Virus record (IMG/VR): IMGVR_UViG_3300004481_000261
Span: 1 to 45,938 of that record
Strand: one strand, 5' to 3'
DNA length: 45,938 nt
From: a virus
Positions 8,612-29,604 of the stretch are shown in pieces. A program made the position numbers and the translations under genes. The first letter of the stretch is position 1; each line of letters begins with the position of its first letter. Below the pieces are notes generated by a model. It saw only the letters and a list, made by a program, of their open reading frames with translations, had not been told where the DNA came from and did not search any database.

Positions 8612-8965
8612 TTATGAATAAGTTATTGAACTAACATTACCTCCACTATATGCTAAAGTTTTAGTTAAAGAAATACCTGAAGGTGTACTACCAGATAAAA
8701 CAATTGAAGTAATATCACCGGAAGTATAGTTGAAAGTTTTCACAATCGTTAGACCTCCACCTAGAGTATATGTAATGTAATTTATATCAGCCCCGGAATA
8801 AGTGATAACGTAAGGGTATGAATTTAGATTCTTTGAAACACTCTCGAAAGTATTTGAAAGAAAACTAAGTGCAATCCAAGATCTTACACCTGCAATCGTT
8901 GAAGACAGAACATAACCATTAGTCGAAGGAACACCTAGGTATTTTTCTAAAAGATATGTACTCAT
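8612..8965 (-). CDS. Hypothetical protein, tailspike-associated
   Basis: 117-aa ORF immediately upstream of the tailspike gene. Contains short repeats (ITYT...ITSI...SSITYS). Confidence 0.4.
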   Translation of the reverse strand: MSTYLLEKYLGVPSTNGYVLSSTIAGVRSWIALSFLSNTFESVSKNLNSYPYVITYSGADINYITYTLGGGLTIVKTFNYTSGDITSIVLSGSTPSGISLTKTLAYSGGNVSSITYS

Positions 8966-9417
8966 GCTGTATCTGTTACTTGAACTGAACCAGTAGTTGA
9001 ATCTGTACTAATATCAGTGATTCGAATATCTGGACTTGTAGGTCTTGAAAATGAAATATCTATCCACGAATTATCTCTACGTTGGTAGATTGTGTCTGTA
9101 TCTGTTGCAAAGTAAAAAGCAAGATTGCCTCCATCTGCTGGTTTTGCTGAATCTGCTCCTGATGTGATTAAGTTGCTTCCCATAACTTCTGTAACTACTC
9201 CTGCAACAACACTATGACCTCCTGGCTTCTGCATGATAGCATTCTTGATGAGCATCTTAACTACAAGTAAAAGACAATCGAATCTTTCTTTGAGTTGGTC
9301 AACTTGTTTTTCGATAGGTTTGTTCTTAAGAGAAGTACACCACCAACAATATCCATCCATCCCATGTTCACATGTTAGAAGTTGTCGATTGAGAGCCTGT
9401 TGATCTTTGGGATTCAT
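8962..9417 (-). CDS. Hypothetical Cys-rich protein
   Basis: 151 aa. The N-terminal CEHGMDGYCWWC cluster suggests metal binding. Overlaps the next gene by 4 nt. Confidence 0.4.
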   Translation of the reverse strand: MNPKDQQALNRQLLTCEHGMDGYCWWCTSLKNKPIEKQVDQLKERFDCLLLVVKMLIKNAIMQKPGGHSVVAGVVTEVMGSNLITSGADSAKPADGGNLAFYFATDTDTIYQRRDNSWIDISFSRPTSPDIRITDISTDSTTGSVQVTDTA

Positions 9418-9458
9418 ATAATAAATATATTAGGTAATTGAGATTAAAACACTGTATA

Positions 9459-10493
9459 CTATTTGAAAAGAGGTTTGTTGTGAATTTTATTAAATTCTTC
9501 AAGACCTGATGCAAGTTTCATCATATGAGTTCCTTCACCTCTACTATTAAGTATGAGAGAATCATAACCTTTTTCTTTTAAACCTTTTGAGATAATAAGG
9601 TCCATCGCTGCATCAAACTTATTATTTGCTGATTCGTTAAGTACTGTTCGAGCTTGTTTTTCAGGTATTCCTGCTTCAAAAAGACTATCCATAATTTTCA
9701 GATCTATTTCCTTATCTGTGACATCGAAATTGTGAAAGACTGAAGTATATAGATCATCTGCAATATCTCGGATATTTGTAGGTAGTGCTTTATCATACCC
9801 ATTGTTAATTATAGAATACGAACCATCACTTAGTTCTGCATTTTCAATGATTAGAGGTTTCTTTGGTTTAAAGTTTTCTTCAAATGTCTTAGAACCACCG
9901 ATTGCATGAGGATTATCCTTTACTAGAGTTGAACCAGTCTTGTCAGTAAACCAAGTACCACCACGGGTTGAATCTGTATTTTTATTAAAGTCATCAGCGT
10001 GTCGTAACCAAGTTGAAGCAACATCTCCTGCTTCTTTAAGAATAGGTTTCACTGCTTTAGCCATTCCACCAACTCCAAAACTTAATGCTGCATTCTGCAT
10101 ACCCTCCGGTGTTGAGAGTGCTTCTTTACCGAATGGACCTTTCTCTACGTTCTGGTTAAACTCTTTCAGAGCTGCTCGATAAGTCTTAGGTGCTTCTTCA
10201 TCACGTAGTAGTTTTGGAATACCTCCTGCGATAAATGATTTAGCGAAGTCATTGGCATCTGTGGCTGCATGTTTGAGTAGTGAAAGAGATGCTTGAGCTT
10301 TTTCTTTTAGTTTCTTTTCCCCTGTAAGTATGTAGTTATTGAAATCTTTACTCGGTGATGGCATTCCTGTAGATAAAATAGAAGGTATCTTGGACTTAAA
10401 CTCTTTTTCTTGACGCTGTAAAATGGGAAGAACTTCTTTGTCATTCCCTAGCATTGGAGTAGTTGTTTCTGTTTTACCTAGTAGTTGTTCCAT
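9459..10493 (-). CDS. Hypothetical protein (344 aa), possible virion-borne effector
   Basis: Long ORF in the late block. The C-terminal half contains LRHADDF...GGTWFTD...KGYDSLIL. See findings. Confidence 0.45.
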   Translation of the reverse strand: MEQLLGKTETTTPMLGNDKEVLPILQRQEKEFKSKIPSILSTGMPSPSKDFNNYILTGEKKLKEKAQASLSLLKHAATDANDFAKSFIAGGIPKLLRDEEAPKTYRAALKEFNQNVEKGPFGKEALSTPEGMQNAALSFGVGGMAKAVKPILKEAGDVASTWLRHADDFNKNTDSTRGGTWFTDKTGSTLVKDNPHAIGGSKTFEENFKPKKPLIIENAELSDGSYSIINNGYDKALPTNIRDIADDLYTSVFHNFDVTDKEIDLKIMDSLFEAGIPEKQARTVLNESANNKFDAAMDLIISKGLKEKGYDSLILNSRGEGTHMMKLASGLEEFNKIHNKPLFK

Positions 10494-22079: not shown

Positions 22080-22569
22080 TACCTTCGTTGATGCCCTAAA
22101 GGCTACAATCACAGAAAAAGGTTTTAAGCAGGTAGACAATAGACTTAACCGTACTACTCAGAACCTATCTAGCCACTTCATTGAGATTAGTAATAGCAAA
22201 GTTCTAGAATGGTTACGTCGGGAAGAAGTTCTTGAAAAATATAAGGATGATTCTAAACGAATGTATTCTTCTTTCAAGAAAGCAATAGTTGAAGCAAAGA
22301 AAGACCCTAACTCTCGTAGACTAATGGTCTTCAATGATAGTCGGTTCAATGAAATCTATCAATGTTTTACTTCATTCCACTTTGTCTATACTAAAAGGAA
22401 TGAGTTTGACATGATAGTATACCAACGATCATCAGATCTTATTAAACTTAAAGACGACCTAGTTTTCTTTGCCAACCAGATGAAAAAGTTTGAACGAGGA
22501 ACTGACTATTATGTAACGAAACTTATCGTTATTTATGGCAGTATACATTACGAGATAGATGTGGTATAA
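22051..22569 (+). CDS. Miniature ThyA-family protein (thymidylate synthase / pyrimidine hydroxymethylase-like, 172 aa)
   Basis: KKDPNSRRLMVFN parallels DPDSRRIIVSAWN. QCFTSFHFVY parallels PCHAFFQFYV, which holds the catalytic Cys. IVYQRSSDL parallels LYQRSCDV. YGSIHYE parallels GGDTHLY. It is about 90 aa shorter than E. coli ThyA. Confidence 0.6.
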   Translation: MLNQKPQEFDTFVDALKATITEKGFKQVDNRLNRTTQNLSSHFIEISNSKVLEWLRREEVLEKYKDDSKRMYSSFKKAIVEAKKDPNSRRLMVFNDSRFNEIYQCFTSFHFVYTKRNEFDMIVYQRSSDLIKLKDDLVFFANQMKKFERGTDYYVTKLIVIYGSIHYEIDVV

Positions 22570-22579
22570 TTAAAGTATT

Positions 22580-24956: not shown

Positions 24957-24987
24957 TTTGTACATATGTACAAGGTGTATAAGTTTG
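24957..24987 (+). promoter_or_regulatory. Bacteroidota-type promoter (-33 TTTG / -7 TAAGTTTG) overlapping a 16-bp perfect palindrome
   Basis: TTTG at 24957-24960 and TAAGTTTG at 24980-24987 are separated by 19 nt. The palindrome TTGTACATATGTACAA lies at 24958-24973. Confidence 0.5.
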
Positions 24988-25000
24988 GTATAATTAAAAA

Positions 25001-28252: not shown

Positions 28253-28547
28253 ACTAAGAAAAGAAATGAGTGAGGACCCTTACTACTCTATCTGTACTAG
28301 AAAGGATAGTCATTGTAGTGGAAGAATCACATGGGAACATGCGTGGATATATGCAGGAAGACAGATAAATGAAAAATGGGCAATCATACCTCTATGTTGG
28401 CATCACCATCTAGGAACAGGTCTTAGAAAGAATATCAATCAACTCATTTCACTACGTAGAGCAACTCTAGAAGATCTGATGAAATATCCTAAGAAAGACT
28501 GGCAACAGGAAATGGAAACACTTAAACACGAAACAAATGAGTATTAA
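28233..28547 (+). CDS. HNH-like nuclease (Ref/DUF968-like)
   Basis: CSGRITWEHAWIYAGRQINEKWAIIPLCWHHH fits the H...(D/E)xWxxIPLCxxHH pattern. I chose the internal ATG at 28233 as the start. It lies adjacent to RusA. Confidence 0.5.
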   Translation: MRPIPSKLRKEMSEDPYYSICTRKDSHCSGRITWEHAWIYAGRQINEKWAIIPLCWHHHLGTGLRKNINQLISLRRATLEDLMKYPKKDWQQEMETLKHETNEY

Positions 28548-28902
28548 ACTTTACGGTAGAATTCCTAGTAAGAAAAATAGTAAGATTATGATTTGTCGAG
28601 GTGGTCGACCTATTCTTATTCCGAGTCCTGCATACTCGACTTGGCATGAAGAACAGATGTGGGTACTTAAAGACCACAAAATTAGAAAACAAGTTCCTAA
28701 GAAAGTAAACAGTATTCAACTCGACTTCTATGCTCCTGATAGTCGTAAGACTGACTTAACAAATAAAGCAGAGAGTATTATGGATTTGTTAGTTGATGCA
28801 AATCTTATTCTAGATGACAATTGGTATGTCGTACCTTGCATCATCTTGAAGTTCATAGAAGTTGATAAGAAAAATCCAAGAGTTGAGATAACCTTTAATT
28901 AG
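28537..28902 (+). CDS. rusA: RusA-family Holliday-junction resolvase
   Basis: YGRIPSKKNSK...TDLTNKAESIMDLLVDANLILDDNW matches RusA motifs (P.KNs.., D.DN..K...D.L). The 121-aa size fits. Confidence 0.7.
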   Translation: MSIKLYGRIPSKKNSKIMICRGGRPILIPSPAYSTWHEEQMWVLKDHKIRKQVPKKVNSIQLDFYAPDSRKTDLTNKAESIMDLLVDANLILDDNWYVVPCIILKFIEVDKKNPRVEITFN

Positions 28903-28993
28903 TCTATGGTATATTAAAAGATAACGTGGGGTAGTTTAATTAGTAAAACAACTTCGGTTATGCCGGCTCATTCCCGGCCCCCACGACCATAGA
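28903..28993 (+). ncRNA. tRNA-like cloverleaf with a miniature anticodon arm and an encoded ACCA
   Basis: The acceptor-like stem is CGTGGGG (28925-31) / CCCCACG (28979-85), followed by ACCA. The D-like arm is GTTT-AATTAGTA-AAAC. The mini arm is AAC-TTCG-GTT. The T-like arm is GCCGG-CTCATTC-CCGGC. An outer 8-bp clamp pairs TCTATGGT with ACCATAGA. Confidence 0.35.
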
Positions 28994-29013
28994 TCTTTTA
29001 TCGGAGAAGTAGT

Positions 29014-29193
29014 ATGACTGAAGTTCAGGGTAAACCTTTTCGGGAAACACTCAAAGTATGTGGGAATGAACGGACAGTTCTATCTCAATCGTTCAAAAGA
29101 TGTGAACAATGCGGTAAGAAGGTTGGAATACCCTTCCGAATCATTGATGATTTATATTTTTGCTCTAAGTTCTGTTTTCAGAAATACTACTGA
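29014..29193 (+). CDS. Small Cys-rich protein (59 aa, below the ORF-track cutoff)
   Basis: My translation is MTEVQGKPFRETLKVCGNERTVLSQSFKRCEQCGKKVGIPFRIIDDLYFCSKFCFQKYY. It is followed by a terminator and replaces the implausible 29060-29293 ORF. Confidence 0.45.
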   Translation: MTEVQGKPFRETLKVCGNERTVLSQSFKRCEQCGKKVGIPFRIIDDLYFCSKFCFQKYY

Positions 29194-29203
29194 GGAATAC
29201 TCT

Positions 29204-29239
29204 AAACCACCTAGGATATTTCTTAGGTGGTTTTTGTTT
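29204..29239. terminator. Bidirectional rho-independent terminator between the convergent arms
   Basis: AAACCACCTA (29204-13) pairs with TAGGTGGTTT (29224-33), followed by TTTTTGTTT. The A-run on the other side serves the opposite strand. Confidence 0.6.
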
Positions 29240-29243
29240 AGAG

Positions 29244-29468
29244 TTACTTCTCGAAACGAGAGATTACGAATGCGTAGAACGCACCTGCGGTAATGAGAAC
29301 CTGAGAAACAGTTTCCCACAAACCTGCATAACTGAGTGTTGTATAAATTGCAGATGCAACAATAGAAGCAATAAGAAGTACTGCAAGAGTTTTGTAACCC
29401 TTAAGTCTCTTGTTACCCTTGATGCTCTGAATGAACAACGATACGATGACTCCTAAAATGTATTCCAT
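29244..29468 (-). CDS. Holin-like small membrane protein
   Basis: 74 aa from the internal Met (the track ORF extends to 29522), with 2-3 hydrophobic helices (ILGVIVSLFI, LAVLLIASIVASAIY, VLITAGAFYAFVI). It is the last gene of the late arm. Confidence 0.4.
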   Translation of the reverse strand: MEYILGVIVSLFIQSIKGNKRLKGYKTLAVLLIASIVASAIYTTLSYAGLWETVSQVLITAGAFYAFVISRFEK

Positions 29469-29604
29469 ATTATTACTTAACCTGGTTATATCCAGGATTC
29501 TGGAAGCTAAGAGCCACTCCAAACTTCCAGAGTTCTAGATATAATCCCAAATCAAATGAAAACAATAGGCATTTTAATTTTTGCAGTAACCTTCATCTGG
29601 GCTC

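Follow-up and report, generated by a model that had tools for sequence, protein, structure and literature searches.

A family of predicted tRNA-like RNAs without an anticodon loop in phage mRNA leaders, associated with a small zinc-finger gene

Background

The tRNA genes of phages are usually discussed as decoders or as replacements for tRNAs cleaved by defence systems. The minimal substrate of bacterial RNase P consists of an acceptor stem, a T stem-loop and a 3' RCCA. The mascRNA associated with MALAT1 is a tRNA-like cloverleaf with a reduced anticodon arm, and its excision by RNase P at the same time generates the 3' terminus of the RNA upstream of it. It originates from a nuclear lncRNA of eukaryotes and has no sequence relationship to the phage element described here.

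The t-elements of plant mitochondria (Forner et al. 2007, PMC1920247; Ceriotti et al. 2024, bioRxiv 10.1101/2024.09.09.612099) are tRNA-like, do not decode and lie in mRNA precursors beside ORFs, as the phage element does. They are read by the tRNA end-processing enzymes and are tailed with CCA, and they are not aminoacylated (PMC1920247; bioRxiv 10.1101/2024.09.09.612099). The t-elements differ in being organellar, in being cut by a protein-only RNase P together with RNase Z and in having no linkage to a zinc-finger gene. The phage element, in contrast, has an encoded CCA and a leader-trailer clamp, and its cleavage is a prediction.

Like the phage element, the tRNA-like domain of the bacterial Y RNA YrlA (Chen et al. 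2014, PMC4201824) imitates the acceptor arm, the D arm and the T arm of a tRNA and does not decode. The 7-bp acceptor stem is a major determinant for RNase P, and the tRNA-like YrlA is cut in vivo (PMC4201824). YrlA of M. smegmatis, with an acceptor stem of 7 bp, is cut by RNase P and receives CCA, and some of the YrlA RNAs are encoded by phages (PMC4201824). YrlA RNA ends in a Ro60-binding stem at the position of the anticodon arm and its gene lies beside rsr, whereas the phage element ends at the acceptor stem. In the genome analysed here no rsr gene was seen, no Rfam Y RNA was matched and no Ro60-like domain was found among the subset of ORFs scanned.

Phage transcripts that are matured by the host RNase P through a mimic of the tRNA acceptor and T arms are exemplified by the precursor of the C4 antisense RNA of P1 and P7 and by the M3 RNA of phi80 (PMC11143913). 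RNase P is known to cut operon mRNAs in addition to these two RNAs (PMC11143913). The C4 and M3 RNAs have no relation to the present element in sequence or family, do not form a full cloverleaf with a D arm and give rise to regulatory RNAs.

Results

The locus and its features

The window, that is the whole stretch of DNA analysed (IMGVR_UViG_3300004481_000261, 45,938 bp), is a complete phage genome with direct terminal repeats. Genes between about 14.8 and 29.2 kb are encoded on the + strand and the remaining genes on the - strand. The + strand block contains nucleotide-metabolism enzymes, PolB and RusA. RusA is the final gene of the early block common to the relatives of this phage and ends with the stop codon TAG at 28900-28902. 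The 5' clamp arm of the element runs from 28903, one base past the RusA stop as had been stated in the first-pass annotation. The element is thus situated between the RusA stop and the ribosome binding site (RBS) of a zinc-finger ORF, inside a putative mRNA precursor. The features of the locus are as follows.

28537-28902, + strand: RusA-type Holliday junction resolvase gene (Pfam RusA, E 3e-7; 567 homologues)
28903-28910, + strand: 5' clamp arm TCTATGGT, paired with 28986-28993 in the MFE fold
28905-28915, + strand: promoter-like extended -10 motif TATGGTATATT, from which transcription would begin about 1-4 nt ahead of the cloverleaf
28911-28924, + strand: spacer of 14 nt
28925-28989, + strand: predicted tRNA-like cloverleaf without anticodon loop (MFE fold, homologues by the models R1 and R2, covariation)
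28925-28931 with 28979-28985, + strand: acceptor stem of 7 bp, CGTGGGG/CCCCACG
Directly 3' of the acceptor 5' strand, + strand: U8 and A9
28934-28949, + strand: D arm of 4 bp, GTTT/AAAC, with the loop AATTAGTA containing a single G
28950-28959, + strand: third arm AAC-TTCG-GTT (AAC-UUCG-GUU in the RNA), a C(UUCG)G hairpin of 3 bp
28960-28961, + strand: linker AT (AU)
28962-28978, + strand: T arm GCCGG-CTCATTC-CCGGC, with a 5-bp stem and a 7-nt loop
28986-28989, + strand: A73 and CCA (ACCA), encoded
28986-28993, + strand: 3' clamp arm ACCATAGA, overlapping the ACCA
29003-29006, + strand: Shine-Dalgarno sequence (SD) GGAG of the zinc-finger ORF, read from the sequence
29014-29193, + strand: basic zinc-finger ORF of 59 aa (P0002) with CxxC...FCSxxC, of the FCS/MYM/TRASH or L24e-like type
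29204-29233, + strand: intrinsic terminator, a 13-bp stem followed by a T run, which ends the cassette and parts the convergent operons

Beyond the terminator, a conserved hairpin is found at 29500-29540 of the window, with counterparts in two relatives at about 1135-1185 of L004 and about 2925-2975 of L005. Its stems covary and its loop AAGAGCCACUCC (GGAGUGGCUCUU on the - strand) is kept. In the window phage and its relatives it occupies the gap that separates a small membrane-protein gene from the late gene after it. Because in the window the hairpin overlaps the TTG listed as the start of the ORF at 29244-29522, this start may be wrong. Another relative, L075, encodes an RNase T-like exonuclease and a peptide deformylase (8699-9728) just upstream of RusA, and the window has neither.

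Fold of the element

The first-pass annotation had described a cloverleaf with a short UUCG-capped arm, an encoded ACCA and an 8-bp clamp; every one of these structural details is present in the sequence, and the MFE fold of the 91-nt stretch (28903-28993) is identical. The free energy of this fold, cloverleaf together with clamp, is -28.2 kcal/mol (z -2.99), a value equalled by 1 of 200 shuffles, and that of the 65-nt core is -21.1 kcal/mol (z -2.13; both ViennaRNA). These values bear out the claim that the fold is thermodynamically favoured. All 19 pairs of the core are Watson-Crick.

The element has the acceptor and T half of a canonical tRNA, with a 7-bp acceptor stem, a discriminator, a 5-bp T stem and a 7-nt loop. 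A canonical anticodon arm (5-bp stem, 7-nt loop and U33) is absent and 3 bp capped by UUCG stand in its place. The elbow also departs from tRNA, and here the earlier reading of both loops holds. G18 and G19 are absent, the D loop AAUUAGUA having one G, and the T loop CUCAUUC keeps U55, C56 and A57 and is missing U54 and A58. The element does not qualify as a tmRNA, being 65 nt long and devoid of an internal ORF.

ARAGORN calls neither a tRNA nor a tmRNA in the whole window. Rfam gives nothing at gathering thresholds for the window and no match to the tRNA family RF00005 at E<=10 on 28850-29050. The check by ARAGORN and Rfam that had been proposed thus returned no tRNA, and the family has been defined through the homologues of the zinc-finger protein instead. 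On comparative grounds the fold is more than a chance product, because three homologous elements in other phage contigs show covariation.

The zinc-finger protein and its homologues

A word-index search with P0002 retrieved no homologue. An exhaustive HMMER search followed by a profile search revealed four small homologues (P0122, P0124, P0129 and P0130). Four cysteines (C30, C33, C50 and C54) do not vary in the family, whose members share the motif KRCExCGKKV...FR(I/V)IDxLYFCxKxC, and a search of IMG/VR and INPHARED with the family alignment yielded no relative. Pfam gives only sub-threshold zinc-finger hints for P0002. The model of P0002 (pLDDT 71) weakly resembles the treble-clef fingers of MYND, L24e and TRASH and the MYM-type, in fold matches that are not significant (E>0.3). 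Binding of RNA by this modelled zinc finger is plausible.

The four contigs encoding the homologues, L050 to L053, are phage-like, with endolysin, NinG, a methylase and small membrane proteins. A second, shorter zinc-finger paralogue of 42 aa occurs in tandem in each (L050 3194-3322; L051 864-992; L052 about 1564-1692; L053 about 236-364), and the window has a single copy. Stable hairpins, two of them capped by UUCG, are seen between the endolysin and zinc-finger genes at L050 2800-2990 and L051 600-830 and may be terminators or small RNAs.

Further members of the element family

The homologues of the zinc-finger ORF led to three further tRNA-like elements. They lie 225-390 nt downstream of the zinc-finger genes in three of the four homologue contigs. 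The fourth contig, L051, has the layout of L050 but the tRNA-like element is absent from it. R1 and R2 are the family models, R2 being built from the four elements. The further members are as follows.

L052, 1932-1999: R1 48.6 bits (E 2e-11), R2 73 bits
L050, 3546-3615: R1 23 bits; Rfam tRNA 29.5 bits against a threshold of 29 bits
L053, 627-710: match to the family model

Each of the three is predicted to form a cloverleaf or a structure very near to one (z from -2.6 to -3.8). ARAGORN makes no tRNA call on L050 or L051; the L050 element has C33 and is rejected despite its 29.5 bits. Rfam gives no tRNA match on L052 or L053. R2 recovers only the four elements from 127 kb of related loci. A blastn search of INPHARED phages with the element gave no match, and exact and degenerate patterns of the element found nothing in IMG/VR, metagenome contigs and GTDB genomes. 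A family-informed pattern retrieved only ordinary tRNAs and random matches from IMG/VR. No family and no paper for these elements were found in Rfam and the literature.

The contigs L050, L052 and L053 are syntenic, and the known members number four, in two phage lineages. In tblastx the L05x contigs match the window at the protein level in two places only, in the zinc finger and in the wall-binding C-terminal part of endolysin. The hosts are therefore probably related and the module probably shared horizontally, as judged from these matches.

Another RNA, of about 130-150 nt with a long-range closing stem of 17-19 bp, is seen in all four of these contigs (L050 3390-3545; L052 1760-1912; L053 465-625; L051 1316-1466). 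It comes after a promoter-like motif of the TGGTATAAT type in each of them, and what adjoins it downstream is the tRNA-like element or, in L051, the RBS. The tRNA-like clamp faces competition for pairing from the 3' strand of this RNA. Rfam gives no match to the RNA in L050-L053.

Covariation and conserved parts

The alignment comprises the elements of the window, L052, L050 and L053. In the acceptor and T stems all 48 of 48 cells are paired, and 6 of the 12 pairs show double-sided changes. None of 500 shuffles reached the observed covariation, and in slid-partner controls the pairing falls to 35-50%. The covariation analysis in other phages that had been suggested for this element thus finds compensatory changes in half of the acceptor and T pairs among four members. 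The pairs C1-G72, G2-C71, U3-A70, G5-C68 and the two loop-proximal G-C pairs of the T stem are invariant. The same holds for U8, A14 and A15, for the AU that precedes the T stem and for U55, A73 and CCA. Only the + strand accommodates the G.U pairs seen in the D stem of L052 and the T stem of L050.

The third arm is free in both length and sequence, and none of the four members has a proper 7-nt anticodon loop. It is 3 bp with UUCG in the window; 5 bp with UUG, or an alternative longer hairpin, in L052; 5 bp with CACAA in L050, where an alternative drawing gives 4 bp with CCACAAG and no U33; and a 33-nt hairpin in L053. The T loops are of two types, CUCRYUC and UUAGAAY (the latter in L050 and L053), both non-canonical. 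The view that the element does not decode and still keeps the acceptor and T half with ACCA is upheld by this free variation of the third arm and by the covarying acceptor and T stems.

A flanking clamp is present in all four members: UCUAUGGU/ACCAUAGA in the window, GUUGUUG/CAACAAC in L052 and L053 and GUUGU/ACAAC in L050. It extends into the SD in L050 and L053, and the 5' flank of the L05x elements can alternatively pair within the upstream long stem. An RBS and ORF follow 8-25 nt downstream of the element at all four loci. All four elements are co-oriented with the flanking ORFs and are without a terminator of their own. The stretch CGGAGAAGTnnTATGAC at the SD of the window zinc-finger ORF is common to the L050 homologue.

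From this comparison the element is classed as a member of a conserved, non-decoding phage tRNA-like RNA family of four members. Selection, as read from the alignment, keeps the 12-bp minihelix of acceptor and T arm, its start C1-G72, G2-C71, U3-A70 and its A73-CCA end. By the same reading it also keeps U8, A14, A15 and the AU linker before the T stem.

An accessory cassette absent from close relatives

Relatives were identified by RusA (54-77% identity; L002, L004, L005, L006 and L075) or by PolB (L003), and in them a terminator and the convergent late genes come immediately after RusA. Both the element and the 59-aa ORF are absent from L002-L006, L074, L075 and the whole records G001 and G002. 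Judging from this gene order, the segment between 28903 and about 29235 has the appearance of an insertion after RusA. It is read as a cassette with the order promoter-like motif, tRNA-like domain, RBS, ORF and terminator. The conservation in homologous phages that had been expected of a functional element is consequently not found among the close relatives and is found, with covariation, in other phages. This accessory cassette, the linkage to the zinc finger and the overlap of the 5' clamp arm with a promoter-like motif had no place in the first-pass annotation.

Three copies of the motif TGGTAWAWT (TGGTATAWT) are present in the window, every one on the + strand and at a gene boundary (22562-22576, 24986-25000 and 28907-28920), though its count in the window is by itself not above that of shuffles. 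One copy precedes PolB, another follows it and the third overlies the 5' clamp arm, and each is followed by an A-rich stretch (TAAAG, TAAAAAG and AAAAG). In L050-L053, too, the RNA modules have this extended -10-like motif in front of them. The three sites of the early block are candidate internal (middle) promoters. Since the 5' clamp arm overlaps the promoter-like motif, the clamp may form only in read-through RNA if this motif is used.

Two other readings of the segment were considered and set aside. An attP site or mobile element is rejected, with no integrase nearby and no target-site duplication seen. A role of the element as terminator is unlikely because an RBS and ORF follow it without an intervening promoter.

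Resemblance to tRNA classes

The pattern of hairpin and T stem was found at 43 viral loci, 23 of them in tRNA-Leu(UAA) genes, where it forms the variable arm and T arm. The hairpin, the AU linker and the T stem of the element thus resemble phage tRNA-Leu(UAA). The D arm is closest to that of class I tRNAs, with UAGUUUAAUGGUAAAAC of Val and Ile tRNAs as the best match, and the acceptor matches the Pro and Met types. Derivation of the third arm from the variable arm of a tRNA-Leu(UAA) that lost its anticodon arm has been downgraded, as the D arm and acceptor match other tRNA classes. A likeness of the acceptor/T stack to initiator tRNA and a CAU in the T loop are considered coincidence, neither being conserved in the family.

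A genuine phage tRNA-Met(CAU) at L065 1074-1148, with the acceptor CGUAGGA...UCCUACG-ACCA, has the CGU...ACG-A-CCA end of the family and a similar cloverleaf (R1 38 bits). A tRNA-Met(CAU) type with a CGU...ACG-A-CCA acceptor is a possible ancestor. The tRNA-Met(CAU) of L065 differs from the family in its 5-bp anticodon stem, 7-nt loop, GG in the D loop and UUCGA T loop, all four of which the family lacks.

Discussion

What selection maintains in this family is the half of tRNA that enzymes recognise, decoding having been given up. The family is missed by tRNA finders and absent from Rfam, it occurs in mRNA leaders and it travels with a tiny zinc-finger gene. In general terms the family is probably a signal or a shield for host tRNA-processing enzymes in mRNA leaders. 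The specific form of this reading that we favour, tentatively and with a little less than even confidence, is a cis-acting processing and/or 5'-stability module that would be read by RNase P in the manner of the t-elements. It is favoured because the conserved parts are those required by RNase P and the t-elements share the same logic. Among the roles offered in the first-pass annotation, that of a processing or stability element fits the position in an mRNA leader best.

In this mechanism the element would act in cis on its own transcript. The host RNase P would read the minihelix together with the RCCA and cut at 28924/28925, and the RusA and zinc-finger messages would thereby become separate. 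Another possibility, which could also apply alongside the first, is that the compact tRNA fold at the extreme 5' end shields the downstream mRNA from 5'-end-dependent decay. The logic would be that of the plant mitochondrial t-elements and of MALAT1/mascRNA.

Some observations weigh against a processing module. The ACCA is paired in the clamp in the window, which should hinder contact of the RCCA with RNase P. Cutting would hardly be needed if the promoter-like motif is used, because the leader is then only 1-4 nt. The element is dispensable in the context of L051, because that contig has the layout of L050 without it. The invariant first three acceptor pairs and A73, together with the zinc-finger linkage, hint that there is a sequence-specific partner, which would not be required for a plain processing signal. 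If the processing or stability role is true, the use of tRNA punctuation in polycistronic messages is a strategy of phages besides organelles, and such elements would help to define the boundaries of phage transcripts.

The partner hinted at could be engaged in trans. On this rather unlikely reading a stable RNA of about 65 nt, alone or bound by the zinc-finger protein, would act as a tRNA mimic that occupies or decoys a host reader of the acceptor end or elbow, such as a tRNA-targeting defence enzyme, a CCA-end modifier or an aminoacyl-tRNA synthetase (aaRS). The element lies less than 400 nt from a zinc-finger family gene in four of the five contigs encoding one, in an order that differs between lineages, but L050, L052 and L053 are syntenic and the independent lineages behind the linkage therefore number about two. 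Apart from the end of the wall-binding domain of endolysin, the window and the L05x contigs have only the zinc finger in common in tblastx. The invariance of C1-G72, G2-C71, U3-A70, A73 and CCA would suit a mimic, and the weak fold matches of the zinc finger include the rRNA-binding protein L24e, although none of them reaches significance. Most of the known defence nucleases directed at tRNA attack the anticodon loop, which is missing here, and the element has no terminator of its own. A mimic acting with a zinc finger, if true, would be a new kind of phage-host interference. Under either reading the four sequences provide a testable minimal RNA with clear mutational predictions.

An unlikely alternative is a cis-regulatory leader, in which the tRNA-like domain and clamp would be a switch or a protein platform that sets translation of the downstream ORF without any processing, as in autoregulation by the zinc finger. 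The constant position 8-25 nt upstream of an RBS, the clamp that reaches the SD in L050 and L053 and the mutually exclusive folds open to the 5' clamp arm GUUGUUG, which can pair in the upstream long stem, are consistent with a switch. The SD of the window, however, is not sequestered in the MFE fold, and the conservation of A73-CCA at the exact tRNA position would serve no obvious purpose in such a leader. The ORF to be regulated is also not constant between the lineages, since L05x have a membrane-protein gene at this place and the window has the zinc-finger gene.

A bolder form of the trans-acting proposal, which we regard as quite unlikely, holds that the tRNA-like RNA and the FCS/L24e-like zinc finger form a dedicated phage ribonucleoprotein against a host factor that reads the acceptor end, as a mobile two-part anti-host module. 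A tRNA-directed immune enzyme or a CCA-end modifier could be the target, which the tRNA body without anticodon, presented by the protein, would hijack, titrate or disarm. Unrelated phages would exchange the pair.

Bacterial LeuRS ignores the anticodon. The RNA could accordingly be imagined as an aminoacylated carrier, charged by an anticodon-independent aaRS and donating its amino acid to a non-ribosomal acceptor, a proposal that is improbable. In its favour are the intact acceptor stem, A73 and encoded CCA, the conservation of A14, A15 and U48, and a hairpin and T stem that recall the variable and T arms of tRNA-Leu(UAA) noted above. Against it, G18G19 is missing and the T loops are non-canonical and differ between the subgroups. 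A class I D arm combined with a Pro/Met-type acceptor gives no coherent identity set, no transferase gene lies nearby, and the plant t-elements are uncharged.

A functionless tRNA pseudogene decaying after an internal deletion, the relic that had been offered as one of the roles, is very improbable: true tRNA-Leu(UAA) relics with internal deletions do exist in L047 and L009 and the close relatives of the phage lack the element, but those relics have broken stems and fold into no cloverleaf, whereas the window element has perfect pairs (19/19) and a C(UUCG)G cap, and compensatory changes are seen in its family. The two relics are pseudogenes in phage tRNA clusters (L047 12826-12885, - strand; L009 7650-7720, + strand) that are both missed by ARAGORN, and their internal deletions remove the anticodon arm in L047 and the D arm in L009.
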